A stretch of 64,000 nucleotides of DNA from a virus. Numbering within the stretch: position 1 is the first letter of the stretch; each line of letters starts with the position of its first letter. Location of the stretch: IMG/VR virus record IMGVR_UViG_3300045988_085140; one strand, given 5' to 3'. The translations under genes and the position numbers were made by a program. The notes below the pieces were generated by a model. That model searched no databases, was not told the origin of the DNA, and saw only the letters and a program-made list of their open reading frames with translations. This document shows, in pieces, positions 3,091 to 36,669 of this stretch.

Positions 3091-3111
3091 ACCTTATATG
3101 TATTTAAGTTG

Positions 3112-3228: not shown

Positions 3229-3250
3229 ATTGTATGGTTTGAAATGTTCA

Positions 3251-4205: not shown

Positions 4206-4217
4206 AAGTTTATCTGT

Positions 4218-4499: not shown

Positions 4500-4500
4500 A

Positions 4501-8324: not shown

Positions 8325-8385
8325 AAGCCTACATTTATTAATCTGCTGCAAAGATAAGCAATTTTTTGTTACTCGCAAATTTTCG

Positions 8386-10946: not shown

Positions 10947-10971
10947 ATATATTAATTTAAATTATTTAATT

Positions 10972-11541
10972 ATGTGTGAAAAAACAAGTAGTATGTCAAT
11001 GTATATTGGCACAAAAGTAGTTATGGCAATGCCTATGACTATGACAGAAGCACAGAAGGTGCTAGGTAGAGAAATTAAGCCAGCAACCGTTGAGGAAGAT
11101 GGCTACTTAGTAGGGTATAAGAACGGATATACGTCTTGGTCTCCTAAGAGTGTGTTTGATGATGCTTATCGTAAACTTGTCGGAATGGATTTTGGTAAGG
11201 TTATTGAGGCATTGAAGTCTGGTCTTGCGGTAAGACGCAAGGGATGGAATGGCAAAGGTATGTTTGTAGTCAAACAGATTCCTTCTCATATTGAAGGCGG
11301 CATCATTCCTACGATGCAGTCGCTGCCTCAGTCAGCTAAGGATATTCTGCTGAGCCGTGAGAATGCGCACATTGATTATACCAATCAGATGTTGATTATC
11401 AATCCTGATGGTCGTGCAGATTCTTGGGTTCCTTCTTCATCTGATGTTTTTGCTGAGGACTGGGAGCTTGTTGTAACCGAAGATGGTTGGGATTCTTTCC
11501 CTAATTGTGCAGTTCCTTCTGATTCTCCTATTGAAGATTAG
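10972..11541 (+). CDS. DUF2829-domain protein (family of Thoeris inhibitor Tad2)
   Basis: FGKVIEALKSGLAVRRKGWNGKGMFVV ... PDGRADSWVPSSSDVFAEDWELV matches the DUF2829 pattern. Also has the N-terminal GYLVGYKNGYTSWSPKSVFDDAY module. Table start 10927 is GTG; ATGs lie at 10972 and 10993. Confidence 0.65.
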   Translation: MCEKTSSMSMYIGTKVVMAMPMTMTEAQKVLGREIKPATVEEDGYLVGYKNGYTSWSPKSVFDDAYRKLVGMDFGKVIEALKSGLAVRRKGWNGKGMFVVKQIPSHIEGGIIPTMQSLPQSAKDILLSRENAHIDYTNQMLIINPDGRADSWVPSSSDVFAEDWELVVTEDGWDSFPNCAVPSDSPIED

Positions 11542-13063: not shown

Positions 13064-14251
13064 ATGAAAGCATCAGATATGTTACGAAACAACAATGGCT
13101 TGAAGACTACACAGAGTGTGCTCAACAAGCAGCAGAGTGGGGTGGATGCCGCTCAGAAGGTGGCACAGACTCAGGCTCCAGTCTTCACCCAGCAGCAACT
13201 TGATGCGGCTGGAAAGAAGGTTGACCAGATGAATGCTGCTACTCCCACCGATGATGCTATGAAGGCGGCTAGGGCTAAGACTATCGCTACACAGCAAGCC
13301 ATCGCCAATGGGGTGGACGTGAATCAGGGAGTGCCTAGTGATGAGGAGGATAAACCATCTGTCCCTATCGTGAAGAAGGAAGAGCCTAAACCTCAGCCTA
13401 AGCAGTTGTCTTATGCTGATATGTATAAGATGCTGAATCCTGAACTGAATGAGACTGCTGATCAGAAGGCGAACCGAGAGAAGAAGGAACGTACCAAGGC
13501 TCGTATCGCAGCTCTGGGTGATGGTCTCCGTGCGCTATCCAATATCTACTTTGCTACAAAAGGTGCAAAGGTGGTACACAATCCTGAGTCGGATATGACT
13601 AAGGCGGTGAATAAACGCAAGGCATATATGGATGAGCAGAGAGAAAAGAATCGGGCATTATGGCTGGCTGGGTATCAGAGGGCACTCGCTCTTGATGAGG
13701 AAAAAAGAAAGAATAACCTGACTCTCGCTGAACTGGTGAGGTATCACGATATGCAGAACGAAATCAACAAGGTGAAGAATGGCCAAGGGCAGCAGAGAAT
13801 TGACCAAGGTAACAGAAGACTTGAACTTAGTGAGTTGAAATATACCAATGATGCCGAGTATAAGGATAATCAGTTGAAGATTAAGAAGATGCTTGCTGAT
13901 GGTCAGATAAGCCATTGGGCTGCTCAGGATGCACTTGCTAGACTGCGAGAAGGACGAATTTCTAATAAGGCTCAGAAATCTTCTGGCGGTAATCAAACTA
14001 CTGCTGGTTATTGGTATGAGTACTACGACCTGATGGACACTCCTGAGGGGCAGAAGAAGATTAATGAACTTAAAAGAAAGTTGAGAATCAAGAATGTTAC
14101 TCAGACTAACGTGAGATATATTATGGATAGATTGAAAGGAAGAAGTAGTTCTGCTGGAGGTGGTAAACCGTCTGGTGGCGGCAAGCATACAACACATAAG
14201 GCTGGCGGTTCTTCGGCTGGTGGCAAGAAGAAGACTGGCGTAAAATGGTAA
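13064..14251 (+). CDS. coiled-coil K/Q-rich protein with Gly-rich basic tail
   Basis: 395 aa. C-terminus SSAGGGKPSGGGKHTTHKAGGSSAGGKKKTGVKW. Lies between the Gly-zipper protein and the giant ORF. Confidence 0.5.
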   Translation: MKASDMLRNNNGLKTTQSVLNKQQSGVDAAQKVAQTQAPVFTQQQLDAAGKKVDQMNAATPTDDAMKAARAKTIATQQAIANGVDVNQGVPSDEEDKPSVPIVKKEEPKPQPKQLSYADMYKMLNPELNETADQKANREKKERTKARIAALGDGLRALSNIYFATKGAKVVHNPESDMTKAVNKRKAYMDEQREKNRALWLAGYQRALALDEEKRKNNLTLAELVRYHDMQNEINKVKNGQGQQRIDQGNRRLELSELKYTNDAEYKDNQLKIKKMLADGQISHWAAQDALARLREGRISNKAQKSSGGNQTTAGYWYEYYDLMDTPEGQKKINELKRKLRIKNVTQTNVRYIMDRLKGRSSSAGGGKPSGGGKHTTHKAGGSSAGGKKKTGVKW

Positions 14252-14291
14252 CAGAATTGGTAACAAGAATTTGGTAACAAACATATATATC

Positions 14292-17200
14292 ATGGCAGAA
14301 AGACCATTATACACTTTATACAAGAATCTGAAAGCACAGAACTATGATGTGCCTGATGATTACAATAAGTTTGAGAGTGCTCTGACAAGAGACGGAAAAG
14401 GTGGTGCGGATAACAGACATGCTATCTACGAGAACTTGAAGGCTCAGAACTTTGATGTTCCATCAACTTATGAGCGTTTTTACTCTGCACTCTTTGAACC
14501 ACGTAGTAAGACTTCATCTAGAGCGAAGGGCGGTAGTGTTCCTATGAGTGCTGCTGACCGTGCTCGTTTCTCTGCTGGGGCAGCAGCTATCTCGGCTAGT
14601 GCTCAGCAGACAATGAACAATGCTGGCAGATACAACAGACTGAAACAACGCAAGCAGAAACAGCAGAAGGATTTCGGTCGTGTGAACTTGGGTACACATC
14701 AGACTCCTTATGGTGGTGATGCAAACAATGTTGTGAAGGATGATTTTGCTTACAATCCTGAGACTGGCAAGACTGGCGCATACGTTACATCGGACAATGA
14801 GAATGTTTATTCTCTTCCTGAAGCTGAGCAGAAACAAGCTATTCTTGACCAGCAAAACAATGCATATCAGGAAGCGGTAGATACTGGTGAGATACCATCT
14901 GCCTTTGATGTTCGTGACAAGAAAGGTAACTATGACTTGCAGGATAACATCGGCAAGAATGGAACCTACCTTACTGAGGAAGGTGCTCAAAAGCAGTTTG
15001 ACAAGAAATTGGCTGATGCCTATGCCCGAAAGAAGGAGATTGAAGCTCTTATCGCTGAGGATAATCGCCAACACGGAAATCCTTTGCTCTCTTATGGTGC
15101 TAGTATCGGTGCAAGTAACGGAAGAACTGCTGAGCAGAGTGACTATAGAAATAAGTTGGCAACCTCTCTTTCTCTGGTTACTGAGCAGATTGGAGCGCTT
15201 GAAGCGGTGAAACAATATCCTACAAGTAGCTGGGGTGAGGATGCCTTGAAGGCTCTTGACAATACTGCATTTACTGCAAAAACATGGGATTTCGGTCTGA
15301 CTGACTTCGCTATCATGGGGCAGATGGAACGTATCAAGACAAAGATGGATAACAATATTCCTCTCTCTGGTTCTGATAAGATGCTCCTGAAGAGTAAACT
15401 TGGTGCGGATGCTGCTACGGCTATCGAAGATGAGAAGATGGGTAACGTCTATCGTTGGACGAAAATTGCAGGGAAGAGTCTCCCATTTATGGCTGACTTC
15501 TTCCTGACTGGCGGTTATGGTGGTATTACCAAGGGCATCAGTCGTGGAGCCTTGAAATTTGCTGCTAAACGTGGCATGGGCAAGGTGAGTGCTGCCATCT
15601 TGAAGAATACTGGTATCGTGGCTGGCGATGTTATCGGCTCGTATGCAATGGCTGGAACTGAGCAAGCGTTGAAGACTGGTGCTGACATCATGCAGCGACA
15701 TCTTGGTAATCTGTATCAGGATGAGAAGGGTGATTATAAGTTTGGTACTTTCGATGAGAATGGAAATCTTCTGCATGAGGGTGGTGAGTCTATTGGTACT
15801 GCTCTCTATAAGGGTATGACCTCTGCTATGGTAGAGAACTATACAGAAAAACTTTTCGGTCACAACTATGGTATCAAGAAGGGTGCTGTCAACTTCATGG
15901 AGAAACATGGTATGAATGCTTCTGCTGAGTTCTTCAAGAATATCGGCAAGAGTGGATGGTACACCAATTCCAAGAAGTGGATGGAGAAGTTCGGTATCAA
16001 TGGTTTCGCTGAGGAAGTGATGGAGGAGGAAATTGGTATTCCTCTTCATGCCCTGCTGGATGGTGAAGGTAAGGTGAGCGACCTTCTTGATGCTAAGCAG
16101 CAACTCGACATCATCGGTGGTATGGCTATCTCGGTCGGTTCTATGTATGCGATGGGTGCTGGCTCCCGACCAGTAAAAGGTATCTACAATCGTGCTCAGT
16201 ACTACCGATTCCGCAACAAGGTGAACGTGGCTGATAGTGATGCAGAGAACCTTATGGGCGATAACTGGGCAGACATCAAGGATAAGATAGACAACGCAAC
16301 TAATGAGCAGATGGGTAGTGTGCTGGCTGATATTCTCAGACAGAGAGATACCATGACCAAGGAACAGATTAATGCTGCTGTTAACTATGGTGTAAACCTG
16401 ATGAAGATGCGTGGCTACAATATTGCCAAGACTGCTGAAATGAATGCCAAGGAGATTACCAACGAACCAACAACACCTGAGGAGCAGCATCAGGCAGATA
16501 TTGACAACGCTTATTCTGAGGGGCATGATGCTGATGATGCAGATAAGCATGATATTCAGATTCAGCAGGAAGACCAGATGAAGACTCTTGCAGCAGCATT
16601 GGGTATCTCTGAGCAGCAGTTATCAGCCATGAGCGATGAGGAACTGGAATCCCTGACTGGGCAGGATGATAAACTTGACCAAGCTATCTATGACTACCAG
16701 TTGTCTTCTGCCCGATACCAAGGTGTGGTTGATGATGCACAAGATAAGGTTGACCTCGCTGCACATCAGGCAGAACAGAGAGTTGATATGTACACAGACC
16801 AGAGTCGTGGTTCTGTTCGTAACGCTACTATCAAAGCATCAGGCGGCTTGGAAGACTATGGTGTATATATTATCAGTGGTAATATTGCTACTCATGATGA
16901 TGGCTCCATTGATGTAAGCAATAGCGATGATATGATTCTCTATTATGACCCGACAACCAATAGCGTTGAACATGCTGATGCGTTGATGGTCGCTGAACTG
17001 GGTGAAGAACTACCTGCTGATGATGTGAAGGCTCAGGCGGTATCTGATGCTAAAGAGAATGCTATCAAGGAAGTGGCTGGCATCATTGATGGAACCGTTG
17101 AAGTTGGCTCCCAGTTCAATGTGACTGATACTGATGGTACTGAACATACCTATGAAGTGTTGGCTGACTATGGTGATGGTACTGCTGCTATTTCTATAGA

Positions 17201-20200
17201 TGGTAACGTGGTGGAGAATCCTTATTCGCTTGCAGACTTGCAGCAGATGAAAGACTTGGAAGACCAGAAGAGACTGGAAGCTGCCAAGGCTGAGCGTGAG
17301 CAGATGGAGAAAGAACGTGCTGCTCAGCAGAATCAGGAGACTGAGCAGACTCAACCTTCATTTGACTTCAATCAGATTCTCAATGATAATGGTAACGTGG
17401 TGCTCGTTGATGTGCTCGACAAGGATGGTAATACCAAATACCCTGACTCTAGATTATTCCTTATCCGTGATGCTGGTGCTAAAGCTAAGGTAGTTGAGTT
17501 GAAGAGTGATGGTACTCTTGTTCCTCATGCTGTGAACAAAGAAGATGTGGCTACAATCTCTTCTATGTCGCTCGATGAATACAAACAAGCTATGCCTGAA
17601 TCCTCAATGATTGAGGATAATAGTGGAGAGAATAGAGGTGAGATAGAGGTGGAAGCTCCGACAATAGAGGGCGAGGTCGCGGCTCCTGTTAATGAGGTCG
17701 CGGCTCCTGAATCTGCTGAGACTCCTGCAACTGAGCAGACTCCTGCTGCTCCTGCCATTACTCTTGAAGATGGAACCATCGTGCCTATGCTGGAGGATGG
17801 CAATCCTGACTTCTCGAAGCTGACTGCCGCACAGACTGCTGAGCTATATGATAATCAGTTTGGTGAGGATGCAGATAGTATCGTATCTGGATATGTGTCT
17901 GATGCAAAGAAGGCACTCGACAAGGCTAGCAACATGACCGTGAAGGGCAAGACTTTCGTGGAACAGAAGGCTGCTAAGGATGCCAAGGAGAAGGCTATTG
18001 CTGATGCTAAGGCGGCTTATGACTCTGCTATCGCTATCCGTGATGCTTATAATGAGCGACAACTTGCCAAGGTGGAAGATACTGCTGAGGGTAGAAAGGA
18101 ACTCATTGAGAAGGCAAGAAGAAAGTTCGCTCGCTTGAAGAGTGCGGTGAAGGATGATGCTGAGGCGGTGGCTCAAATCTATAAGGAGACGGTTGGAACT
18201 CTGCTGCATCGTCTGTATGATGGTACTGGCATTGACGTGACAGATACGATTCCGCTTACTGCCGAGGAGTATGTGGCTAGTAACCTCGGTGCTCACTCTC
18301 TCAACTATGAGGGAACAGAGACAAGTAAGGGCGTTAAGCAGGAGACTGGATTGAGTAGAGAAGACTTTGCCAAGACTCAGTTGCTCGCTGCTGATGGCAA
18401 TGGAACTACTATTGATGAGCTCGTTCATAGTCTGTGGGAGAATCGTCCATCCAACCTTGAATCACTAGACACTCAGGATATTCGTAATGCTCTTATCAGT
18501 GTACTCAATAGCGGTTTCAAGGCATCGGAAGCAAGGAATTTTGTTGAAAATATTCGCATTGCTCAGGCAGAGAACATACTTGAAGAGCAGAAACGTGCTC
18601 AGGAGAATGCAGCCTATGCTGAGCAGCACAAGGCTGAGCAAGAGGCCGAGTTGAAGGCGAAGTCGGATGAAAAGGCTGAGTTGAAGGCGAAGTCAGAAGC
18701 GAAGTCGGATAATGAATCGGATAATAAATCTGATGATTTGTCTAATGAAACGGATAATGATAAGATAAATGACAATATAAATGATAATATAAATGTTCCT
18801 GAGGATGCTACTGATGAGAATCCTTTAGGCGCAGAGCGTGATGAATCTGACCTTCCTTTCTCTACCAAGGAGAATGGCAAGCAGCAGACAACTGCCGAGC
18901 GTGCTGCTGACGTAGAGAAGAATAAGGTGGATGATATGAAGGTCGTTGACAATATCGTGGGCGAGAAGACTCGCAAGGCTTTCGAGAGACTGGCTAAGAT
19001 GATGGGTGCTAACATTCAATGGCAGTACTCAGACAAGTTGGGTAACGGCTGGATTCAGGAGACTACGGATGCCGATGGCAACGTTCATCGTACAATTTTC
19101 ATCACTCTTGACTCTTCTATCACGGAAGGTGCTCAGTTTATCTTCGGTCACGAAATGACTCACCAAATCAAGAACCTGAACCCTGCTGCATACAATGAGT
19201 TGACTCAGCTTGTGCTTGATACCTATGGCTCTGATGCCTTCGACAAGGCGGTAGATGAGACTATGCAGAGATATTCCGATGCAGGATTCTCTGGACGTGC
19301 TAGAGATTACTATGCTGAGGAGGTTGTTGCTGATGCGGTAGGCGAAATGATTCGTGACCTCAACTTGGCTCATACTCTCGCCATGAAGATGTCTCATCCT
19401 CTGCTCGCTGCTATCCATGAGATATTACAGAAGATTAAGTTGGCATTCTTTGGTACTGAGTATAGCGATGTGACCAAGAACATCATCCGCTCCATTGAAC
19501 AAGCATACGTGAAGACTGCCAATGGTCAGGTGACAAACTCCGAGACTGGCGAAGATGTTTCATTCTCTCTACGTCAAAAGCCTGAACCTAAGAAGAAGGG
19601 TATCGGATATAAGGTATTTGTGCTAAAGGATGGTAAACTCTATCCTCCGATGGTAGCGAACCCTGACGGTGCAGAAACCCCAGTCGGTGTGTGGCTCGAT
19701 GCTGATGCGGCTCCTATTGCTGGAGAAAGCAAGACTGGCAGACCTCAGGTTAAGCAGGGCGGTAAGGGAACACAAGGGGGTAGCGGTAAGCTAGCCTATA
19801 GACCAGGCTGGCATCTTGGTGTCGTGCCTTACGCTATCCAGTTCAATCGCAAGGATGCTGAGGGCAACAAGACTCTCTTCCCAAAGAACTTCGTTTTCGC
19901 TGAGGTGGAGTATGCTGCTGATGTAGATTATCAGGAGGAAGCTCGCCAAGAGGGTATCAATCCATCGGGCAAGTATCAGCATTCATTGGCTGGCTTGAAA
20001 CATCTGCCTACTGATGGATATTATATGTATCGTACCAACCCGAACCCTGAGACTGACCCTTGGGTGATTACTGGTGCGATGAAGGTGAACCGTATCTTGA
20101 CCAGAGCAGAGCAAGCGGAACTTGTGAAGAACGCTGGTCGTGAACCTCAGCAGATTCAGGAGGGCGATATTGTTACTGATGATGTCGTGAACAGCATCAA

Positions 20201-23200
20201 TCAGGAGATAGCTGATGCTCCTAAGTTCTCGTTGAAGGATAATCAGGAGAATCCTCTGAATCAGGATGGTACTTTGAAACTGGATAAGATTAAGTCCGTT
20301 GATGAATTGACGGATGAAGACTTCACTAGTGCCTTTCGTAATGTAGAGCTTCCTGCTATACCAAAGAATGTGGATGCTGCTATAGGGGCAAACGGAAAGC
20401 CTATTGTTATCAAGAAGAATATTTTTGAGAAGAATTGGAATGCTCACAAGTTTACTCCTGCTGAAAGCAAAAAGGTATTGAATGATGCTTTATACAATAC
20501 TGATTTAGTAAGGCACACACAGCCAACAAAGAAGCCTAACCATTGGGTTGCAATCAAGTTGGATGATAAAAGTCCTATCACCGTGTTGGAAGTAAACGAC
20601 AACAAGAATAATGTTGAAGTTGTTGGTTGGTATACACTTGATGAAAGAAATCTTGGGAGAATAAAAAGACAAGCTGAACGAAATGGCGGCGAACTCATTA
20701 TGTTAACTCCTAAAGATGATAAGGTGGAAAGCCTTTCCACTCCTCCGCTCAGCTCTGCTGCAAATATAATCAATTCTTTTGAAACTACCAAGGAAAATGG
20801 CGAAAAAGTTGATGTTGAGGGCACAAAATTCTCATTGAAAGATGAAGAATACCTGAAAGCGGTGGAAGATGGCAATATGGAAAAGGCTCAGAAGATGGTG
20901 AATGAAGCTGCTGATGCTGCTGGCTATTCTACAGATTCCAGCTATCAAGGTACATCTGCCTTCAATGGTGCTGCACCTTGGGGTAATGGTTACTTCTTGA
21001 CAAAGGACGAACGCAAGGAGGCATGGGATAATGGCGAGTTTGAAGGTGAATCAACTCTTGGTGATTATATCAATGATGATATTGATGGCGGCAACTTGGA
21101 GGAGTTGACTAATGCCGCATCTTATCGTGCAGCTGACCCTATGCGTAAGGAGGCTATTGATAACGTTCGTAATGCTATTCAGAAGAAAGCTAAGACTATT
21201 ACAATGTATCGTAGTGTTCCTTCTGATGTGAAGGAAGGTTCTTTCCGAAATGGTGACTGGGTTACTCCAAGTCGTGCTTATGCTGTTGATAATGCAAAAT
21301 TGCATGGATGGGGTGACGATTACAACATCATCGAACAAAAAGTTCCTGTTGATGATGTGTGGTTTGATGGCAACGATATTGCAGAATGGGGCTATGGTCG
21401 TGAGGAAGATTATATCAATGATACAGACTTCGCCTATAAGAACAGCAAGAACAACAAAAAGTTGCTTGATGCCGTTACCTATGATGATAATGGTAATGTG
21501 ATTCCTTTGTCTCAGAGATTCAATGAGAAGAATAAGGATGTGCGTTTCTCTTTGAAGGATGAAAAAACTCTTGCAGGAGTGCATAACATTACTGAGGAGA
21601 AACTGAGAAAGGCTTTGAAGCTGGGTGGCTTTGCCAATCCTTCTTTAGCTGTAATTGATACCAACAAGACTGGTCACGACAACTTTGGAGAGATTTCCTT
21701 CATCGCTCCTTCTGCCCTTTTGGATAAGCGTACTGGCAATACTGGTGGTACATGGATAACTGATGCCTATACTCAGCGTTATCCTTCCGTAGAGCGAGAA
21801 ATGAGCGAAAAGGGGTATCGGAAGTTTGAAGACTGGGTTGATAGCCTTGATTACCCAAGTGGAGCTAAGGCTGAGATTGAGAGACAGGCAAAGGATGCCC
21901 TAAGTGACAATAATGCTCCTGCTTGGGAGTTGATGTACTTGAAGGAAAAGGGTATTGATATTAAGGAGTATGATTCAAGAATTGATTATCGCTGGAAAGA
22001 GATTATCAGTGACCATCCTACTGCCGAGGATATTTTGAATAGTATGAAGACTGACCCTGAACTGAATGAAAAGGTTACAAGTCTGGCTAAGCATGCCATC
22101 ATCCATCCTACTTGGGAAAAGGTTTCTTTGGAGGTGAGAAGAAAGATGTATAAGGAGACTGGCGTTAAGGCTAGCCCTATCAATCCACAAGTAAGAAAAC
22201 AGACTAAGGAAATCTTTGAGCGTGACTATGCGCCAACCTTGCTTAACAAGGACGGCAGTCCAAGAAAAAAAGATGTGAAGAAGGTTGTTGAGGATATTGT
22301 GAAGGAACATAAAGATACCAAGAAGTATGACTTCTATCTGTCTAAGGTGAAGGCTAGTAATTACGTCAACAAGAATGGTCTTTATGATGATTACATCAGA
22401 TGGCAGGAGAACAAACTGGATGAGTTCGGAACGAAGAACCGTATCTTCCGTGGCTATACTAGGGATGGTTCCCGAAAGTATGTGCCTGAGACTCTTGAAA
22501 ATGTTTCAAAGGCTATGAGGGAAGAAGCAGATGGGCAGACCAATGGAAGCGAATATACCTCGTTTGGTAGCTTTATCGCAAAGTTGGCTAGTCGTGTTGA
22601 TTCTACAGACGAAATGCGTGCCAACAAGGATAAGTTGTCTTCTAATAAGGATAAGGAAGAATTTTACGAGAAATGGAGTGATGTTTATTATGACCTTGCC
22701 AAGTTCTTGTATAATGATGTGTTCTATGGTGAGCAGAGACTTCACGATATTGTATTGCAGTCTGACCCTAAGAAGTATGCCAAGAAAGAATATGGCATTA
22801 CCCTTACTCCTACCTTCATGAAGAAACTGGATGCCTTGAAGAATGCAGTACAGACAGAGTTGAAGAGTGCGTACTTTGAGACTAAGTACAACAGACCTCT
22901 CCGTCTAAACGAGTTTGCTGCTGCTGTGGTTCCTGATAACTTGGGCAAAGATGTACGCAAGGGTATAGAGAATGCTGGCTTACCAATGTATGACTACGAC
23001 CCGAATAAGGAAGGTGACCGCAGTCGTGCTTTCAATGAAGCTATCAATAGTAGCGACAATATCCGGTTCTCTCTCGCTGGTGTGCGTGGTGCGGCTGCTG
23101 CTGACAAGGCAGAGGAGCGTAATGCTCGTATGGATAATCTCTCCGTGGCTCGCAAGATGGAAGAAGAGAAGAAAGATGCCAAGGCTATCAAGATGGCTAC

Positions 23201-26200
23201 TGGATGGGAGCGTGGTGCTGATGGCAAGTGGAGATACGAAATGCCTGATGCCAAGATAAAGGACACGATGGACGTAGGCGGTGGACACATCGTTAAGCGT
23301 TACGAGGATGATATGCTCTGGAATGGCGGCAAACTATTTGATGTGATTGATGCACCTGAATTATTTAAGGCTTATCCTCAGTTGAAGGGTGTTCGTATTG
23401 ATACGGATGCCATTATGAACGATATGCCTTCACATGGTGAATATGATTCAAAAACCAACACCATAACCATTCATGCTGATGAGTTGAAATATATGAATGA
23501 CATATTGAATCACGAGATTCAGCATGCTATTCAAGGTATTGAGGGATTTGCCACTGGAGGTAGTCCTACAACTATTAGAGGTGAAGTCAAGAAGAGGTTT
23601 AATGAGGTCACAAAACAGATTAAGCAGCTACGAGCAGAAGGTAAGGAAGATGAGGCGAAGGCTCTCATAGAGAAGAACAGAGGTCTTTATGATGCCTACA
23701 TGAAGAATGATGATTTCAATAGCTACAAGTCACTTGCTGGCGAGGTGGAGGCAAGAAATGTGCAGGAAAGAATGAACATGACTCCTGAGGAGAGAAGAAA
23801 AACTCTCGCTGAATCTACTGAGGACGTGGCTCGTAAAGACCAGATTTTCTTGGGTGTGGGTGATGTGTCCTTCTCCCTCCGTGATATGGCTGACGGAAAG
23901 GAGAGTGGGGCGGCAGATATGGCTGAGGATTTGAAGAGTCTGAACACTCCTGATGAGGTGGATGATGCTATCAAGACTGCTATTGAGGATATGCCGAGCG
24001 GCTGGAAGATGGCTAACAAGAAGATGATTCATATTGCTCAGGCTCTGGGCGAGAATCGCAAGGCAGAGATTGCTGGCGAGGAACCTAAATTCTCCCTGAA
24101 GGATGGCACTCTCATTAAGGCTGGAACATACTTTAGCGGTGGCGGTCTTGTTGAGGAAGGCTTGAAGGGTATCATCGACCCAGTGGTGGCAGTGGAGTAT
24201 GATGAGAAGATAAGCGGCGTATATCGCAACAATTTCGGGCAGCACATCGTTACTGCTGATGTTCGTGATGTTGACCCTAAGGAGTTGGTTAAGCAGATAG
24301 ATGGCGAGGTGGAGTACTTCCATGCCAGCCCAGTCTGCAAGAACTACTCTCAGGCAAAGAGTAACCATGCTGAGGTGGAACTTGACAAGGAGACTGCTGC
24401 TAGTACTGCCGAGTTTATCAATGCTATTAAGCCAAAGGTTGTGACCATTGAGAACGTGAAGGGATATAAGGATTCCGAAGCGATGAAGACTATCACCGAT
24501 GCTCTGGATGCCAACGGCTATACTTGGGATGCAGATGTGTATAATGCTGCTGACTATGGCGGCTACACAAACCGAGAGAGATTGATTGTCCGTGCGGTTC
24601 GTGATGGTAAACTTCCTGCCAAGCCTGAGAAGATGGCACGCAAGAGCGGATGGTATGAAGCTGTGGCTGATATTATCCCGACCTTGACAGAGAAGAAGAA
24701 TGGTGTGGCTCCTTGGATGGATATTCGCTTGAAGGCTGATGGCATTGACTGGAGAAACATTGACAAGCCATTGTATGTGATGGGTAGTGCCTATGCTGAC
24801 GGCAAGGTCCCTCATGCCTTCGCTGATGAACTGCTGCCAACACTCAGAACGAAGAGTGGTGATGTGATTGTGATGCCTGATGGTAAGGTATATCGTGCCA
24901 TGGGAAGAGTGCTCGCAAGAGTATCAGGAGTGAGCGATGATTACAAGATGCCATTCTCCGAGAACCTGAGCCATATCATCATCGGCAACGGAATCCCTAC
25001 CCAGTTGACGGAACATGTGATTGCTCCTCTGCTTACTGGCTCTGACCCTAAGTTTAGCATCCGTACCTATCATGGTACTGGTGCTAGCTTTGACAAGTTC
25101 GATTTCAGCCACATGGGTGAAGGCGAAGGTTCACAAGCATTTGGATGGGGTGGTTATGTTACTAACTCTAAGGATATTGCTGAGGACTACACAAGACGTG
25201 CCAAGATAAGGAAAGATAATGACGGTTTTGAATTTGTGACAGATATGTCTGCCAATAACAAAGATATGGTAAGACAATATATCTATAAATATAAAGATGT
25301 AAACAAGGGATTGGATGCTATGAGAAAAGACCTTTCTTCTGCTCTAGAAATGTTCCCTGATGATGATGATTTAAAGGAACTTAGCAATATTCTTGCAAAG
25401 AAGAATGAGGAAATAGCTGTTCCTGATAATATTGCTTATCTTTATGATGTGGATATTCCTGATGATAATGGAGATTATCTTGACTGGGAGAATAAACTGA
25501 AAAAATCTCATTTGAATAAGGTAAATAAGGAGTTGGTTAGAATAGGCAAGGAGCCTATTGAGACCATTTATCCAAGTCGTGTTGATGGTAAGGTAAGAGG
25601 TCAAGACTTGTATGATGAACTTTCCTCTATGCTTGGTTCTAAAGAAGCAGCTAGTAAGTTGTTAAGTGATGCTGGCTTTGTTGGAATCAAGTACCCTGCT
25701 GGAACCATTTATGGCGGTGCAGAGGAAGGCGATTACAACTATGTGATATTCGATGAGACCAATGCCAATATCGTGGGTAATACCCGATTCTCCTTGCGCT
25801 ATGACCAGTTTGAGCACGACCTGAACCAGTGGAAGAAGGATAATAATCTGCCAAAGGATGCTCAGAGGCCAACCATCCCACAACGCAACGCTGGTGAGAG
25901 TGCCGTTGACTTCCTGAGGAGAGTGGACGAGTACCGCAAACAGATGGCTCTGTGGAAGACTGCTCCAACCTACGAGCAGCATCTTCTAAGTGATGATACT
26001 GCCCTTGGAGAGTTCAACCGAGAGTTGCAGCGTGGTTCTGTTCTGAAACGTATCGCCTTCCAAGATAGTATGCTGGCTATCCGCAAGGCTCAGGAAGCTA
26101 TCATGAAGGAAGTGGGTGTTGACCGTCTGAACATGGCTGAGGATGCCTATACTGCCGAGAACCGCAGTCACGGCAAGGGAAAGAACGAGTTTGAGGAATA

Positions 26201-29200
26201 CAATAATGAGTTCTTGCAGCCATTGAGAAAGGCTTATCATCAGATGAAGAAGATACTGGGTGACAGCTATGATAATGTCCGTATCTACATGATGGCTAAG
26301 CATGGCTTGGAGCGTGATTCTCAGATGGCTTTCAAAAAGTCTCTGGAAGCTGACTATGAGGACGTGGCTCAGAGAAGTGCAGCATATAAGGCTTACAAAG
26401 GCGATATGAACCGTATCATCAATGATAGCGACTTGGAGTTTGGTAGAGTAGACTTCACTACTTGGAGACAGAGAGACAATGCACTCAGGGCGAAATATTC
26501 TCCATCTTATATGAACTATCGCTACGACAAGAATGGTATTGCCTACGATTACTCAGGTTTGTCTGCTCTCTTTGACGGCTCAGACTTTGAGGAAGCTGCC
26601 TACAAACTGGTAAAGGATATTGAGGATAAGTATGTAACCGAGACTCACAACCTCTGGGATGCAACGAATGCGGCTACCAAGAAGATTCTCCGTGATGGCT
26701 ATAAGGCTGGCATGATGAGCAAAGATACTTATCAGTATGTGCGTGATATGTATAGCCATTATATTCCTCTCCGTGGCTGGTATGGCACTACTGCCGACCA
26801 AGTATGGGACTATATTGGTGGTGGAAAGGGTGCGTTCAATCAGACCTTGAAGAAGGCACACGGACGAACCTCTATCGCTGATGACCCTATCGCCTACATC
26901 GAGAATATGGCAGAGAGTGGAATCCTGCTGAACAACAAGAACTGGGTGAAACAACACCTGATGCTCTTGGCTCAGAATCATCCAACTTCCCTGCTGACCC
27001 TGAGCAAGGCTTGGTATGTGAAGAGTACGGATGCCAACGGCAACGAGGAGTGGATTCCTGCTACACCTCAGATTACTTCTCAGATGGATAGCAATCAGGT
27101 GAAGGCTGCCATTGATGCTTTCGAGAAGAAGATGGAGCAGATGGCTCAGGCTGGCGATGCTACTCAGAAGAGAGACGGATTGAACATAGCCTATCCTCAG
27201 ACTCACAGCGAGGAGAGAGAACATGAGGTGCGAGTGATGAAGGATGGCGAGGAATATGTTATCTATGTGAATGGTGACCCTCAGTTGGCTCAGGCGATGA
27301 ATAATACCAGAGCACACCGAGTAAGAGAGATTCAGAGCGGTAAACTTGATAGGGCTGCTGCTTGGTTGGGCAGAAAGATGGCTGCTGCCTATACCAGTCT
27401 TTCACCTCTCTTCATTCCTTCCAACTACTTCCGAGACCTGACCATGACGCTGGCATCTACAGCTATCCGTGAGGATGCAAAGTACAACTATCTGCTCAGA
27501 AAGAATCTGGCTACCTCTTGGAATCTCGGATTCATGCTGAGAGATTTTCAGAACGGAAAGTTGAGAGATAAGGTAAACAACGGAAACGCTACACCAAAGG
27601 AACAGATGTTCTATGACTTCATGATGAATGGTGGTGAAACTGGCTTTGTCTCTTCGCTTGACGTGGAAGACTTGAAGAAGAAATTCAAGAACGACTTGAA
27701 GGATTTGGATAGATGGAAGGCGAACCCAGTAAAGGTAGGACATACCATTATGGATAGCATTGAGTTCCTGAACAGAGCAATTGAGGATAGTAACCGATTT
27801 GCGGTTTACATGACCTCCATTCAATATGGGCGTTCTATTGATGAGGCTGTGAATGATGCCAAGAATGTAACATTGAACTTCAACCGCAAGGGTACTGGCG
27901 AATATGGCTGGCAGATGATTAGAAACCTCTATCTCTTCATCAACCCAGCAGTACAGAGTTTGCAGACTTTGGGTGCGCTTGCTAAGCATCATCCATTCAA
28001 GTTCACGGCTGTTACTGCATCGTGGTTGGCGAGTGGTGTACTGGTTCCTATCGTTAACGCTGCCCTGATGAGTATGTTGGGTGGTGATGATGATAAGGAT
28101 AAGTACTGGCAGTTCACCAAGTGGGATAGAAGAAACAACCTGATTATGTGGGTTCCGTTTACTCATGAGTATGTGAAGATTCCGCTTGCTCAGGAGTTCC
28201 GTGCCTTCTATGGAATAGGCGATATGATTGCATCTAAGATGATGGGTGGCGAGTTGGCTGAGGAAAGTTGGAGCCAGTATGCAGAAGATTTGCTCGGTCA
28301 GGTAGTGGATATGCTTCCGCTTGACCCTACTGGCTATGATGGCAATATTGCTGTCAGTCTGATGCCGAATGCTATTCGACCAGTCTTTGAGTTGGCTTTC
28401 AATGTTGACTTCACTGGCAAGCCATTATTCAAGGACACAGAGTACAACAAGTATGACCCTAACTTTACCAAGGCATACGTGGGCACTCCTGATTGGTTGG
28501 TTCGTGCATCAAGGATGGTTAACTCAATCGGAAACGACTATCCAGATGTGCAGCAGAACAGCATTGATGCTTTCGGTGACCCAAGATACAATCTGAATAA
28601 CCCTGCTGTGGTTGACCATGTATTGTCTTCTTATCTCGGTGGTGCTTACACCATGGGCAGTCAGGTGCTCGGTTTGCTTACCAAGTCGCTCAATGACCCG
28701 AAGGAAATTAAGGTGGCTGATATTCCATTATTCAGTAAGTTCGTCAGCAATCCTGATGATAGACCGGTTACTAAGAAACAAGGTGATGAGTTCTGGAATA
28801 TGAAGGAGAACCACGACCGTGCAGCCAATACCCTGAGCAAGTTGAAGAAACAAGCTAAGGTGGATGGCGATTACTCAATGCTGGAGCGGTTCTACGGCTC
28901 AGAGGAGTATAAGAAGTACAAGCAGGATGATGTGAAGGTGAAGAAGTATGAGGAAGACAAGAAGAAGGAACGTGCTGAGGAGAGTGGGGAGGAGTATAGA
29001 CCTCACAAGTTGAATGCCGAGGATATATACAAGGCTCATGCTACTCCGAAGGATGATTTCGAGGACTTGAAGCTGAAACAACTCTACACCAAACTGAACG
29101 GATTCAAGACTTCCTATGACCTCTTGGTTGATACGGCTCCTAGTCAGAGCGATGGCTACTACAACAACAACAAGGCTGCCATTGATGCCATTGACGAGAT

Positions 29201-29378
29201 TTCCCTTGACAAGCAGGAGATTTCCGAGTTGAAGAAAGGTTTCTTGGATGATGGCAAGGATGCCTACAACGCTGAGGACATGAAGCAGATTCGTGACCTG
29301 AGAAAGAAGATTCTTTCCGTGCTGGAGAAGGCTAACAAGGTAGTTGTGGCTAACCAGAAGGCAAAGGCTAAGAAGTAA
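14292..29378 (+). CDS. giant polyvalent (multi-effector) virion-type protein, ~5028 aa
   Basis: Single uninterrupted frame. Table start 14271 is TTG; the first ATG is at 14292. Contains HEMTH (19149-19163), HEIQH (23511-23525), a complete C5-MTase motif set (24105-25052), Gly-rich hydrophobic segments and acidic low-complexity linkers. Confidence 0.85.
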   Translation: MAERPLYTLYKNLKAQNYDVPDDYNKFESALTRDGKGGADNRHAIYENLKAQNFDVPSTYERFYSALFEPRSKTSSRAKGGSVPMSAADRARFSAGAAAISASAQQTMNNAGRYNRLKQRKQKQQKDFGRVNLGTHQTPYGGDANNVVKDDFAYNPETGKTGAYVTSDNENVYSLPEAEQKQAILDQQNNAYQEAVDTGEIPSAFDVRDKKGNYDLQDNIGKNGTYLTEEGAQKQFDKKLADAYARKKEIEALIAEDNRQHGNPLLSYGASIGASNGRTAEQSDYRNKLATSLSLVTEQIGALEAVKQYPTSSWGEDALKALDNTAFTAKTWDFGLTDFAIMGQMERIKTKMDNNIPLSGSDKMLLKSKLGADAATAIEDEKMGNVYRWTKIAGKSLPFMADFFLTGGYGGITKGISRGALKFAAKRGMGKVSAAILKNTGIVAGDVIGSYAMAGTEQALKTGADIMQRHLGNLYQDEKGDYKFGTFDENGNLLHEGGESIGTALYKGMTSAMVENYTEKLFGHNYGIKKGAVNFMEKHGMNASAEFFKNIGKSGWYTNSKKWMEKFGINGFAEEVMEEEIGIPLHALLDGEGKVSDLLDAKQQLDIIGGMAISVGSMYAMGAGSRPVKGIYNRAQYYRFRNKVNVADSDAENLMGDNWADIKDKIDNATNEQMGSVLADILRQRDTMTKEQINAAVNYGVNLMKMRGYNIAKTAEMNAKEITNEPTTPEEQHQADIDNAYSEGHDADDADKHDIQIQQEDQMKTLAAALGISEQQLSAMSDEELESLTGQDDKLDQAIYDYQLSSARYQGVVDDAQDKVDLAAHQAEQRVDMYTDQSRGSVRNATIKASGGLEDYGVYIISGNIATHDDGSIDVSNSDDMILYYDPTTNSVEHADALMVAELGEELPADDVKAQAVSDAKENAIKEVAGIIDGTVEVGSQFNVTDTDGTEHTYEVLADYGDGTAAISIDGNVVENPYSLADLQQMKDLEDQKRLEAAKAEREQMEKERAAQQNQETEQTQPSFDFNQILNDNGNVVLVDVLDKDGNTKYPDSRLFLIRDAGAKAKVVELKSDGTLVPHAVNKEDVATISSMSLDEYKQAMPESSMIEDNSGENRGEIEVEAPTIEGEVAAPVNEVAAPESAETPATEQTPAAPAITLEDGTIVPMLEDGNPDFSKLTAAQTAELYDNQFGEDADSIVSGYVSDAKKALDKASNMTVKGKTFVEQKAAKDAKEKAIADAKAAYDSAIAIRDAYNERQLAKVEDTAEGRKELIEKARRKFARLKSAVKDDAEAVAQIYKETVGTLLHRLYDGTGIDVTDTIPLTAEEYVASNLGAHSLNYEGTETSKGVKQETGLSREDFAKTQLLAADGNGTTIDELVHSLWENRPSNLESLDTQDIRNALISVLNSGFKASEARNFVENIRIAQAENILEEQKRAQENAAYAEQHKAEQEAELKAKSDEKAELKAKSEAKSDNESDNKSDDLSNETDNDKINDNINDNINVPEDATDENPLGAERDESDLPFSTKENGKQQTTAERAADVEKNKVDDMKVVDNIVGEKTRKAFERLAKMMGANIQWQYSDKLGNGWIQETTDADGNVHRTIFITLDSSITEGAQFIFGHEMTHQIKNLNPAAYNELTQLVLDTYGSDAFDKAVDETMQRYSDAGFSGRARDYYAEEVVADAVGEMIRDLNLAHTLAMKMSHPLLAAIHEILQKIKLAFFGTEYSDVTKNIIRSIEQAYVKTANGQVTNSETGEDVSFSLRQKPEPKKKGIGYKVFVLKDGKLYPPMVANPDGAETPVGVWLDADAAPIAGESKTGRPQVKQGGKGTQGGSGKLAYRPGWHLGVVPYAIQFNRKDAEGNKTLFPKNFVFAEVEYAADVDYQEEARQEGINPSGKYQHSLAGLKHLPTDGYYMYRTNPNPETDPWVITGAMKVNRILTRAEQAELVKNAGREPQQIQEGDIVTDDVVNSINQEIADAPKFSLKDNQENPLNQDGTLKLDKIKSVDELTDEDFTSAFRNVELPAIPKNVDAAIGANGKPIVIKKNIFEKNWNAHKFTPAESKKVLNDALYNTDLVRHTQPTKKPNHWVAIKLDDKSPITVLEVNDNKNNVEVVGWYTLDERNLGRIKRQAERNGGELIMLTPKDDKVESLSTPPLSSAANIINSFETTKENGEKVDVEGTKFSLKDEEYLKAVEDGNMEKAQKMVNEAADAAGYSTDSSYQGTSAFNGAAPWGNGYFLTKDERKEAWDNGEFEGESTLGDYINDDIDGGNLEELTNAASYRAADPMRKEAIDNVRNAIQKKAKTITMYRSVPSDVKEGSFRNGDWVTPSRAYAVDNAKLHGWGDDYNIIEQKVPVDDVWFDGNDIAEWGYGREEDYINDTDFAYKNSKNNKKLLDAVTYDDNGNVIPLSQRFNEKNKDVRFSLKDEKTLAGVHNITEEKLRKALKLGGFANPSLAVIDTNKTGHDNFGEISFIAPSALLDKRTGNTGGTWITDAYTQRYPSVEREMSEKGYRKFEDWVDSLDYPSGAKAEIERQAKDALSDNNAPAWELMYLKEKGIDIKEYDSRIDYRWKEIISDHPTAEDILNSMKTDPELNEKVTSLAKHAIIHPTWEKVSLEVRRKMYKETGVKASPINPQVRKQTKEIFERDYAPTLLNKDGSPRKKDVKKVVEDIVKEHKDTKKYDFYLSKVKASNYVNKNGLYDDYIRWQENKLDEFGTKNRIFRGYTRDGSRKYVPETLENVSKAMREEADGQTNGSEYTSFGSFIAKLASRVDSTDEMRANKDKLSSNKDKEEFYEKWSDVYYDLAKFLYNDVFYGEQRLHDIVLQSDPKKYAKKEYGITLTPTFMKKLDALKNAVQTELKSAYFETKYNRPLRLNEFAAAVVPDNLGKDVRKGIENAGLPMYDYDPNKEGDRSRAFNEAINSSDNIRFSLAGVRGAAAADKAEERNARMDNLSVARKMEEEKKDAKAIKMATGWERGADGKWRYEMPDAKIKDTMDVGGGHIVKRYEDDMLWNGGKLFDVIDAPELFKAYPQLKGVRIDTDAIMNDMPSHGEYDSKTNTITIHADELKYMNDILNHEIQHAIQGIEGFATGGSPTTIRGEVKKRFNEVTKQIKQLRAEGKEDEAKALIEKNRGLYDAYMKNDDFNSYKSLAGEVEARNVQERMNMTPEERRKTLAESTEDVARKDQIFLGVGDVSFSLRDMADGKESGAADMAEDLKSLNTPDEVDDAIKTAIEDMPSGWKMANKKMIHIAQALGENRKAEIAGEEPKFSLKDGTLIKAGTYFSGGGLVEEGLKGIIDPVVAVEYDEKISGVYRNNFGQHIVTADVRDVDPKELVKQIDGEVEYFHASPVCKNYSQAKSNHAEVELDKETAASTAEFINAIKPKVVTIENVKGYKDSEAMKTITDALDANGYTWDADVYNAADYGGYTNRERLIVRAVRDGKLPAKPEKMARKSGWYEAVADIIPTLTEKKNGVAPWMDIRLKADGIDWRNIDKPLYVMGSAYADGKVPHAFADELLPTLRTKSGDVIVMPDGKVYRAMGRVLARVSGVSDDYKMPFSENLSHIIIGNGIPTQLTEHVIAPLLTGSDPKFSIRTYHGTGASFDKFDFSHMGEGEGSQAFGWGGYVTNSKDIAEDYTRRAKIRKDNDGFEFVTDMSANNKDMVRQYIYKYKDVNKGLDAMRKDLSSALEMFPDDDDLKELSNILAKKNEEIAVPDNIAYLYDVDIPDDNGDYLDWENKLKKSHLNKVNKELVRIGKEPIETIYPSRVDGKVRGQDLYDELSSMLGSKEAASKLLSDAGFVGIKYPAGTIYGGAEEGDYNYVIFDETNANIVGNTRFSLRYDQFEHDLNQWKKDNNLPKDAQRPTIPQRNAGESAVDFLRRVDEYRKQMALWKTAPTYEQHLLSDDTALGEFNRELQRGSVLKRIAFQDSMLAIRKAQEAIMKEVGVDRLNMAEDAYTAENRSHGKGKNEFEEYNNEFLQPLRKAYHQMKKILGDSYDNVRIYMMAKHGLERDSQMAFKKSLEADYEDVAQRSAAYKAYKGDMNRIINDSDLEFGRVDFTTWRQRDNALRAKYSPSYMNYRYDKNGIAYDYSGLSALFDGSDFEEAAYKLVKDIEDKYVTETHNLWDATNAATKKILRDGYKAGMMSKDTYQYVRDMYSHYIPLRGWYGTTADQVWDYIGGGKGAFNQTLKKAHGRTSIADDPIAYIENMAESGILLNNKNWVKQHLMLLAQNHPTSLLTLSKAWYVKSTDANGNEEWIPATPQITSQMDSNQVKAAIDAFEKKMEQMAQAGDATQKRDGLNIAYPQTHSEEREHEVRVMKDGEEYVIYVNGDPQLAQAMNNTRAHRVREIQSGKLDRAAAWLGRKMAAAYTSLSPLFIPSNYFRDLTMTLASTAIREDAKYNYLLRKNLATSWNLGFMLRDFQNGKLRDKVNNGNATPKEQMFYDFMMNGGETGFVSSLDVEDLKKKFKNDLKDLDRWKANPVKVGHTIMDSIEFLNRAIEDSNRFAVYMTSIQYGRSIDEAVNDAKNVTLNFNRKGTGEYGWQMIRNLYLFINPAVQSLQTLGALAKHHPFKFTAVTASWLASGVLVPIVNAALMSMLGGDDDKDKYWQFTKWDRRNNLIMWVPFTHEYVKIPLAQEFRAFYGIGDMIASKMMGGELAEESWSQYAEDLLGQVVDMLPLDPTGYDGNIAVSLMPNAIRPVFELAFNVDFTGKPLFKDTEYNKYDPNFTKAYVGTPDWLVRASRMVNSIGNDYPDVQQNSIDAFGDPRYNLNNPAVVDHVLSSYLGGAYTMGSQVLGLLTKSLNDPKEIKVADIPLFSKFVSNPDDRPVTKKQGDEFWNMKENHDRAANTLSKLKKQAKVDGDYSMLERFYGSEEYKKYKQDDVKVKKYEEDKKKERAEESGEEYRPHKLNAEDIYKAHATPKDDFEDLKLKQLYTKLNGFKTSYDLLVDTAPSQSDGYYNNNKAAIDAIDEISLDKQEISELKKGFLDDGKDAYNAEDMKQIRDLRKKILSVLEKANKVVVANQKAKAKK
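18648..18795 (+). repeat. low-complexity coding repeats (AELKAKS x2, NDNI x2)
   Basis: GAGTTGAAGGCGAAGTC occurs at 18648-18664 and 18678-18694, followed by a D/N/K/S-rich tract. A similar 16-nt repeat GAGGTCGCGGCTCCTG occurs at 17673-17688 and 17694-17709. Confidence 0.7.
18930..19562 (+). other. zincin-like HExxH module 1 inside the giant ORF
   Basis: ...TIFITLDSSITEGAQFIFGHEMTHQIKN...YAEEVVADAVGEM. Bounded upstream by the D/N/K/S low-complexity linker and downstream by the first FSLR motif. Confidence 0.5.
23079..23870 (+). other. zincin-like HExxH module 2 inside the giant ORF
   Basis: ATGWERGADGKWRYEMPD ... ILNHEIQHAIQGIEGFA ... SLAGEVEARNVQER. Lies between FSLA (23067) and FSLR (23871). 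Confidence 0.5.
24105..25052 (+). other. C5-cytosine DNA methyltransferase module inside the giant ORF
   Basis: YFSGGGL (motif I), VAVEYD (II), HASPVCKNYS (IV, Cys codon 24336-24338), TIENVKG (VI), TNRERLIVRA (VIII), IIGNGIP (X). Confidence 0.75.
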
Positions 29379-34983: not shown

Positions 34984-34987
34984 ATTA

Positions 34988-36667: not shown

Positions 36668-36669
36668 AT

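Follow-up and report, generated by a model that had tools for sequence, protein, structure and literature searches.

The closest described counterparts of the phage gene analysed here are the LPD38-type giants of short-tailed phages, among them Bcep22 gp75 and JC1 gp69 from Burkholderia phages, phi24B gp47 and Stx2-86 gp35 from Stx phages, PTXU04 gp25 from an E. coli phage, and BKO1-TP3 gp55 and BS-TP4 gp3 from Bacteroides phages. These proteins have a homologous C-terminal region of ~750–1,000 amino acids (aa) with the LPD38 domain and the same predicted fold, occupy about a fifth of the genome, and carry variable enzymatic modules N-terminal to that region. In mass spectrometry of JC1 virions, gp69 (4,515 aa, 22% of the genome) ranked second by score, and gp67 and gp68, encoded just upstream of it, are virion-associated (PMC9144972). 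The portion of the phi24B preprint covered here describes gp47 as an abundant virion protein that is not seen in the reconstructions, and proposes that it is encapsidated and serves in ejection (bioRxiv 10.64898/2026.04.10.717836); PTXU04 gp25 is required for phage fitness (PMC11879866). In the portions of Iyer et al. (2017; PMC5512222) on which all our references to that paper are based, LPD38 is placed exclusively in phage-type polyvalent proteins; polyvalent proteins combine disparate effectors in one chain of 2–15 domains, with a metallopeptidase (MPTase) hub and proposed autoprocessing. Here we describe a gene of this kind in the IMG/VR virus record IMGVR_UViG_3300045988_085140, analysed as a stretch of 64,000 nucleotides (nt; the window): a 15.1-kb open reading frame (ORF) whose product is probably a giant internal-virion (ejection) protein, that is, an LPD38-class phage-type polyvalent protein with exchangeable effectors, proposed to be cut at a pentapeptide between its modules.

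A very large polyvalent phage protein is already known biology and as such opens no new question. A modest detail for which we found no earlier description is the junction pentapeptide and its pairing with a dedicated zincin, which gives the autoprocessing that Iyer et al. proposed only generally an explicit and testable form.

A single reading frame of ordinary size for its family

The giant ORF runs from a TTG at 14271 to 29378 on the plus strand, with 5,035 codons and no internal stop. It makes up 23.6% of the window, in agreement with the initial annotation, which had described one uninterrupted frame filling almost a quarter of it. The first ATG lies at 14292 (MAERPLYT...) and is the likely true start, because relatives open with the same MAERPLY. 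The product counted from this ATG, as are all residue numbers below, has 5,028 aa, which with some 110 Da per residue corresponds to roughly 0.55 MDa.

Could an assembly or sequencing error have joined ordinary genes? Some metagenomic relatives are indeed broken: one is split into 3,318 and 1,238 aa (locus L005), and the copy in Segatella copri HDE04 stops ~200 aa into the C-terminal region. Against such an artefact, the giant frame is free of stops over 15.1 kb in which the other reading frames are full of them, and unbroken homologues of 5,137–7,236 aa are known from independent assemblies, including the single-frame relatives of 5,452 and 5,137 aa recovered in our search of cluster representatives. 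On an uncultured Prevotella contig (locus L003) an ORF of 4,532 aa or more runs off the edge of the locus, and the cultured Bacteroides phages BKO1-TP3 and BS-TP4 have intact giant genes of 5,553 and 5,391 aa. Because long uninterrupted relatives occur both in independent assemblies and in cultured phages, the single frame is, on this comparison, real, and we regard an artefact as barely conceivable. The full-length relatives come from the representative search only, since the 5.8-billion-sequence database returned no protein longer than ~2,343 aa and shows the giants only as fragments; entries of this kind can let giant genes seem less common or shorter than they really are.

In a search with the C-terminal 1,189 aa, 5,356 cluster representatives gave a match (1,386 at E ≤ 1e-30), and the matched region is in every case their C-terminus. 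Length and module occurrence were counted in the best 150 of the 5,356; their median length is 4,234 aa, and the longest has 7,236 aa. The protein had initially been called exceptionally large. This did not hold: 41 of the 150 are longer, as are the BKO1-TP3 and BS-TP4 homologues, and its size is ordinary for its family when set against these sequences. The family itself is already catalogued in Pfam (LPD38), in PHROGs and among GenBank phages.

Searched by tblastn, the C-terminal region finds 337 phage records, including Bacteroides phages (31% identity), Burkholderia Bcep22-like phages (annotated 'DarB-like antirestriction'; E 5e-22), Ralstonia and Vibrio phages, and Stx phages ('LPD5 domain-containing protein'). 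The match to the Stx-phage LPD5/LPD38 protein has an E-value of ~1e-22 by tblastn and 2.8e-29 by BLASTP. Stx2-86 gp35 (2,783 aa) carries LPD5, LPD1, MuF_C and LPD38; it differs from the giant protein, in which neither LPD5 nor LPD1 is present. The C-terminal scaffold also matches PHROG 14770 (E 1e-145), a profile 3,427 positions long. A megablast of the giant gene against 50,697 phage records gave no match.

An AlphaFold2 (AF2) model of the C-terminal core, built from a 33-sequence alignment, is mostly helical, with a predicted local distance difference test score (pLDDT) of 70. It resembles LPD38 proteins in the BFVD at template-modelling (TM) scores of 0.5–0.73, among them E. coli phage PTXU04 gp25, and the giants matched in this way carry lytic transglycosylase (LT_GEWL), RelA/SpoT, methylase or helicase modules. 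Against the PDB, a profile search with the core found nothing and Foldseek reached at best E 0.63 with TM < 0.15; the fold is therefore known from predictions only.

Two observations concern the gene itself. Three direct copies of (A/T)TGGTAACA, spaced by 12–14 nt, lie at 14245–14279 (+) and take up the 40 nt from the stop of the preceding 395-aa ORF to the ATG of the giant gene; exact TTGGTAACA matches twice in the whole window, both times within this interval. The copies could be a regulatory or translation-control element. Inside the giant gene, ORFs of 254–678 aa run on the minus strand (14514–16550, 678 aa; 23730–24815; 27402–28166), for which no family matches were found. Their length is explained by the rarity of TTA, CTA and TCA in the sense frame, where these make up 55 of the 5,028 codons and none occurs between 14514 and 16620.

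Conserved ends and an exchangeable centre

Comparison with relatives shows two conserved ends, N- and C-terminal, around a mosaic, exchangeable centre. The closest relative (P0121) is 96–97% identical in both scaffolds and has different central modules in a different order. With the homologues of BKO1-TP3 and BS-TP4, the protein has only aa ~83–1422 (24% identity) and aa ~3890–4877 (31% identity) in common, whereas its central 2,400 aa have no BLASTP match there (E ≤ 1e-3); the comparison with related Bacteroidales phage genomes that had been proposed at the outset thus finds the scaffolds shared and the centre not. The region of aa 400–1000 is present in 102 of the 150 best representatives and each central module in 2–36 of them. 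The modules of the clade are drawn from a pool of InPase, MuF_C, PBECR1, PBECR2, PBECR3, PBECR5, LPD3, LPD13, LPD23, ART-PolyVal and C5 methyltransferase. Similar mosaicism, with about 50 domain combinations, is described for Helicobacter jhp1044 (Iyer et al., PMC5512222). On this picture, abundant gut Bacteroidales phages (with Prevotella/Segatella and Bacteroides hosts) would devote roughly one fifth of their genome to a single injected effector array, and since the content of the array differs between near-identical phages, it probably helps to determine host range at the level of strains as well as resistance to host defences.

A shorter version of the protein is found in the complete genome of Segatella copri HDE04 (chromosome NZ_CP152346; L007 551–10579). 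It has 3,342 aa, is 86% identical over aa 1–1982, arranges its modules differently and contains seven junction motifs. Beyond the stop in the C-terminal scaffold mentioned above lie opposite-strand ORFs of 1,340, 308 and 717 aa without Pfam matches. This copy could be a decayed prophage or an insertion.

To map the modules, the protein was split at its nine FS[LI] sites (aa 1758–3833), an approach suggested by the initial annotation that proved sound: the sites bound eight central modules (M2–M9), preceded by a further module (M1) that ends at the first site (Table 1).

Table 1. Parts of the giant protein and the two genes preceding it
Feature	Nucleotides (strand)	Residues	Assignment or basis
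N-terminal scaffold, conserved	14292..18551 (+)	1–~1420	no family; weak LPD14
Acidic and D/N/K/S low-complexity linker	18699..18911 (+)	~1470–1540	translation
M1, zincin-like metallopeptidase module 1 (candidate)	18969..19562 (+)	1560–1757	HEMTH at 1620, downstream EEVVAD
M2	19563..20225 (+)	1758–1978	opens with FSLR; PHROG 30118, E 2e-33, function unknown
M3, LPD13 module	20226..20828 (+)	1979–2179	Pfam LPD13, E 1.6e-41, full profile
M4	20829..21545 (+)	2180–2418	no family assignment
M5, PBECR5 predicted RNase and extension	21546..23066 (+)	2419–2925	Pfam PBECR5, E 3.7e-19; PHROG 22978
M6, LPD23 and zincin-like module 2	23067..23870 (+)	2926–3193	Pfam LPD23, E 4.6e-13 and 3e-12
M7, short acidic module or linker between two junctions	23871..24089 (+)	3194–3266	
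M8, C5 cytosine DNA methyltransferase	24090..25052 (+)	3267–3587	Pfam PF00145, E 2.7e-28; TIGR00675
M9, divergent ART-PolyVal/DUF3990-like (YHGTG...)	25053..25787 (+)	3588–3832	partial profile match
C-terminal scaffold, conserved	25788..29375 (+)	3833–5028	LPD38 and hydrophobic helix; region defines family
Hydrophobic helix	28026..28082 (+)	4579–4597	Kyte-Doolittle 1.79
LPD38	28098..28730 (+)	4603–4813	Pfam, E 1.2e-22
Upstream partner 1, T7-gp14-like, 219 aa	12401..13060 (+)		Pfam T7_gp14, E 6.8e-6
Upstream partner 2, 395 aa, coiled-coil, Gly/Lys-rich tail	13064..14251 (+)		BLASTP E 7e-15, 1e-13 (homologues in BKO1-TP3 and BS-TP4)

The features that the initial annotation had read from the translation were each recovered. 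The N-terminal helix NLKAQN[YF]DVP is duplicated (aa 12 and 48), Gly-rich hydrophobic stretches occur at aa ~395–470 and 605–625 (Kyte-Doolittle peak of 1.29 at 605–623), and the acidic and D/N/K/S low-complexity linker, the two HExxH modules, the C5 methyltransferase with its full set of motifs and the membrane-like segment in the C-terminal region of ~1190 aa are all present. The polyvalent-protein architecture of Iyer et al. that it had proposed is likewise found, the C5 methyltransferase, PBECR5, the ART-PolyVal-like module and the two HExxH modules standing in one ORF; the domains come from the catalogue of those authors (PMC5512222), and their number is near the upper end of the range given there. 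The N-terminal scaffold also has a weak match to LPD14 (aa 546–628, E 0.0013, under the Pfam cutoff), and degenerate repeats of 12–30 nt lie at 18630–18722, by the low-complexity linker.

The statement that most modules look uncharacterised stands in part. Judged by profile matches, most central modules belong to catalogued families, with LPD13, PBECR5, LPD23, DNA_methylase and LPD38 scoring above the Pfam cutoffs; however, LPD13, LPD23 and LPD38 are in the catalogue without a known function, and the N-terminal scaffold, M2 (sole match PHROG 30118), M4 and M7 have no Pfam family. The NCBIfam scan contributed only the dcm superfamily, and PDB sequence searches with both halves of the protein matched only the methyltransferase. 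No relative with a solved structure or an annotation is available for M2, M4, the extension of PBECR5 or either scaffold.

One segment, IVIKKNIFEKNW...VEVVGWYTLDE, had been likened to Barnase/EndoU-like nucleases. It belongs to the LPD13 module, which is no recognised BECR nuclease; alignments of LPD13 with MuF_C, PBECR1 and PBECR5 (hhalign) were not significant in a comparison that had no power, its positive control, MuF_C against PBECR1, having failed too. The recognisable barnase/EndoU-type module is PBECR5, two modules downstream of LPD13, at aa 2422–2560 of M5 and followed by an extension of ~365 aa without assigned function. M4 matches nothing in Pfam or PHROGs and does not align significantly with ART or MuF_C (hhalign); relatives contain homologous modules at 35–88% identity.

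In M6, LPD23 (aa 2936–2989) is followed by HEIQH at 3074 and GEVEARN. This module has a weak match to DUF6782, a putative metallopeptidase family, and homologues in large proteins of F116-like Pseudomonas phages, some labelled 'structural protein'. M7 is present in only 2 of the 150 best representatives. Aligned to M.HaeIII and M.HhaI, M8 contains motifs I (FSGGG), IV (SPVC), VI (ENV), VIII, IX and X, so that by its motifs the methyltransferase is complete; in motif IV the catalytic Cys is kept, with Val in place of the usual Pro before it (SPVC, not PPC/FPC). The N-terminal ~45 residues of M9 alone match the ART-PolyVal profile (PF18760; profile positions 8–46 of 140, E 2e-5, 25.7 bits with a cutoff of 31.2), and aligned with the full ART-PolyVal modules of relatives (hhalign) M9 reaches a probability of 93% and E 3e-7 over 45 columns.

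A pentapeptide at the module junctions

The junctions between the central modules have the consensus [KR][FY]S[LIV][KR]. All nine FS[LI] sites of the giant protein fall between aa 1758 and 3833, and the core pattern [FY]S[LIV][KR] is matched by eight, compared with 0.46 expected from shuffles; 120 homologues contain 598 copies of this core against 17.8 expected. Both scaffolds lack the motif, and the other proteins of the window contain one match. The junction motif marks module-exchange breakpoints: of 344 endpoints of homology blocks shared with relatives, 59% are no more than 8 aa away from a junction, where random placement gives 6.6%, and the same holds for 44% of the 87 unique endpoint positions. 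For anyone wishing to screen such proteins for structure or function, the motif is a simple rule for splitting them into modules.

The nine sites are written in differing synonymous codons and have no common word of 10 nt or more, which indicates that selection on the junction acts on the peptide. A DNA-level recombination signal was considered and rejected on the same ground.

The motif has a narrow distribution. Representatives with at least 50% identity in the C-terminal region carry 2–13 copies, while more distant ones have none or one, and a search of the latter for an alternative junction motif (exact 3-mers, reduced-alphabet 4- and 5-mers) found none. M1 follows the same pattern within the one clade to which the association refers, being present in 13 of 16 motif-bearing representatives and in 0 of 134 motif-less ones; M6-type zincins, by comparison, also occur in 18 motif-less proteins. 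The LPD38-type giants listed at the beginning have neither the junction motif nor M1, and compared with polyvalent proteins at large the giant protein is distinguished by a junction that is explicit and clade-specific. The main text of Iyer et al., as far as covered here, yielded no conserved junction or cleavage pentapeptide in a term search.

M1 may be described as a zincin-like metallopeptidase and a candidate processing protease. Its HEMTH and EEV.AD are invariant in the alignment, as is the ...GEDVSFSLRQKPEP segment, and the module ends exactly at the first junction. An AF2 model of aa 1540–1990, from a 7-sequence alignment, has a mean pLDDT of 45, with an unusable M2 part (pLDDT ~30) and an M1 part at 60–87; in the latter, a helix, three strands, the HExxH helix and a Glu helix follow each other in what is, for a model of moderate confidence, the zincin order. 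M1 and M6 appear related (hhalign probability 89%, E 2e-6). With M1 alone as the query, 12 short fragments were retrieved as homologues.

Because the motif is confined to the clade that carries M1, we infer that it is a self-processing site, cut most likely by M1, which lies directly ahead of the first site; Iyer et al. (2017) propose in general that MPTase domains autoprocess polyvalent proteins (PMC5512222). Cleavage at the pentapeptide would divide the polyprotein into about ten pieces, nine cuts giving an N-terminal fragment of ~1,757 aa, eight modules of 73–507 aa and a C-terminal fragment of ~1,196 aa. In its strictest form, in which the clade-specific zincin M1, counted there as the end part of the N-terminal scaffold, recognises [KR][FY]S[LIV][KR] and cuts at every module boundary, in a true self-processing polyprotein that arose once, the proposal is a tentative one that we hold with less than even confidence. 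Were it true, effectors flanked by the pentapeptide could be swapped without redesign, as in a plug-and-play cassette for injected effectors, and a matched protease and site would have arisen once inside an older family lacking both.

A rather doubtful but serious alternative is that the chain of ~5,000 residues is packaged and ejected whole, like the virion RNA polymerase (vRNAP) of phage N4, and that the pentapeptide is a conserved structural element of the linkers, such as a short strand capping the modules or docking them in the capsid, which persists because each module brings its linker along. MPTase domains are present in N4 vRNAP, ArdC and TraC1, which are transferred uncleaved (Iyer et al. 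2017, PMC5512222). Relatives with at most 41% C-terminal identity have many modules and no junction motif, so a cleavage motif is no general requirement of the family, and homology blocks often start 30–50 aa ahead of the motif (aa 1725, 2874 and 3226), which suggests that linker and module travel together. On the other hand, the motif precedes unrelated folds (methyltransferase, ART-like, PBECR5, LPD13 and zincin) and is therefore not part of any single domain; it stands behind polar, low-complexity stretches typical of exposed linkers, is kept as a peptide through synonymous codon changes, and is found together with a dedicated zincin whose end coincides exactly with the first site.

Probable packaging and ejection

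The literature on the homologues, together with a T7-gp14-like gene upstream, makes an internal-virion or ejection protein the best reading of the giant gene. The association with the virion is taken from published work on the homologues JC1 gp69 and phi24B gp47, and we further infer host injection, a role for each effector and proteolysis at the motif. The two scaffolds (aa 1–~1420 and aa 3833–5028) would serve encapsidation and exit from the capsid with the DNA, and the effector modules between them would act in the newly infected cell. There the C5 DNA methyltransferase might protect incoming DNA from restriction, alongside the PBECR5 RNase, the ART-like module, LPD13, LPD23, two zincin-like peptidases and three unassigned modules of the array.

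The gene order supplies part of this comparison. A block of a ~219-aa, a ~395-aa and a giant gene stands in the same order here and in BKO1-TP3 and BS-TP4, which resembles the small, medium and largest genes of T7 gp14-gp15-gp16, and the first gene has near-threshold T7_gp14 matches in two orthologues: 26.6 bits for the 219-aa protein (cutoff 27; profile positions 1–173 of 187) and 23.4 bits for that of BKO1-TP3 (same cutoff, E 6.1e-5). The 219-aa protein is 58–61% identical to its orthologues in BKO1-TP3 and BS-TP4; the 395-aa protein matches no family. T7 gp16 has a lytic transglycosylase domain at its N-terminus. Some relatives in which the C-terminal fold of the giant protein recurs bear such a domain as well; the giant protein itself has no lytic transglycosylase module.

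The vRNAP of N4 (gp50) is likewise a giant protein with an MPTase domain, encapsidated and injected together with the DNA (Iyer et al. 2017, PMC5512222), but the giant protein has no RNA polymerase module, and its Foldseek comparison with the mini-vRNAP was not significant (E 2.8). P1 DarB, from which the 'DarB-like' label of the Bcep22-like proteins derives, is similar in being a large virion-packaged protein that protects incoming DNA. DarB is defined, however, by LPD36, an N6-adenine methyltransferase and an SF2 helicase, none of which was found in the giant protein with Pfam, PHROGs or NCBIfam, its methyltransferase being of the C5 type; because the defining arrangement is absent, 'DarB-like' is an analogy and not homology.

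A protein made in the infected cell and acting there, as a cytoplasmic multi-enzyme polyprotein for anti-defence or host takeover, would suit the neighbours of the giant gene that are of an early or anti-defence type (a Tad2-like gene at 10927–11541 and an RNase H-like gene at 9793–10554) and its distance of ~15 kb from the portal gene. Yet homologues with the same C-terminal region are virion-associated in JC1 and phi24B, the giant gene adjoins the portal gene in BKO1-TP3 and BS-TP4, and a gene for a T7-gp14-like internal virion protein precedes it; we consider this possibility improbable. Still less credible is a conventional tape-measure or tail protein. Such an identity had been named at the outset as a possible refutation, and the great length, the Gly-rich hydrophobic segments and the coiled-coil-like stretches would fit it; a weak match to Phage_sheath_1C (E 0.032) is almost certainly due to chance. 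Enzymatic effector modules are present, however, no tape-measure family is matched in Pfam, PHROGs or NCBIfam, the gene context differs, and the characterised family members belong to the short-tailed phages JC1 and phi24B.

Several points weigh against an ejected, self-processed effector array. The virion role of the giant protein is drawn from homologues. The T7_gp14 matches remain just under the Pfam cutoff, the giant gene is ~15 kb from the portal gene here while adjacent to it in BKO1-TP3 and BS-TP4, and Pfam, PDB sequence, PDB profile and Foldseek searches detected no similarity of the giant protein to T7 gp15 or gp16, or of the 395-aa middle protein to gp15. As for the modules, M1 has no Pfam MPTase match, and a Foldseek search of the PDB with the M1–M2 model, whose M1 part is of moderate confidence, found nothing below E 0.38; the activity of M8 is not assured, because its motif IV reads VC and not the usual PC. 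Phylogeny confounds the association of M1 with the motif: every carrier belongs to one clade with at least 50% C-terminal identity. Finally, N4 vRNAP is packaged uncleaved in spite of its MPTase domain (Iyer et al. 2017, PMC5512222), and the text of the phi24B gp47 preprint, in the portion covered, contains nothing on fragmentation (bioRxiv 10.64898/2026.04.10.717836).

Phage context and neighbouring genes

By its genes the window is a temperate phage, with an integrase (7167–8378), an Ant-like regulator, a large terminase (38075–40291) and an endolysin, and with structural genes for a capsid protein (42087–43625) and a portal (44784–46820). The portal shares 64% identity, the capsid protein 59% and the terminase 58% with the counterparts in BKO1-TP3 and BS-TP4, phages that also resemble the phage of the window in the N-terminal scaffold and the two genes upstream of the giant gene. 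Its host is placed in the Prevotella/Segatella group because close copies of the giant gene occur in Prevotella and Segatella copri genomes. The giant gene is not discussed in the literature on the cultured Bacteroides phages.

In the annotation of these two phages, the genes labelled 'tail spike protein' (BKO1-TP3, L001 21608–23722; BS-TP4, L002 20340–22436; PQ571269 and PQ571277) encode products 58% identical over ~700 aa to the large terminase of the window (PHROG 2), and the labels are probably wrong. Each phage also has a second very large gene of ~2,640 aa (BKO1-TP3, L001 28276 to the end; BS-TP4, L002 26961 to the end). According to the paper on these phages, a diversity-generating retroelement targets BS-TP4 gp14 (PMC12694917).

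About 3 kb upstream of the giant gene, a 204-aa ORF (10927–11541, +) resembles the Thoeris anti-defence protein Tad2 (Pfam PF11195, E 4e-20; PHROG 872) and is a candidate for a separate anti-defence gene; the RNase H-like protein is encoded at 9793–10554. Between the giant-gene block and the terminase, three minus-strand ORFs of 418, 559 and 333 aa (33727–37671) lie in DNA whose GC content falls to 0.27, compared with ~0.44 elsewhere. They have no Pfam match and only weak PHROG matches ('virion structural protein', 'tail sheath'), and the segment looks like a recently acquired cassette. A 973-aa ORF at 50957–53878 matches PHROG 32516. ARAGORN calls a tRNA-like element of undetermined identity at 3863–3941 (−), with the four-base anticodon tatg, which could be a frameshift-suppressor-type tRNA or a false call.

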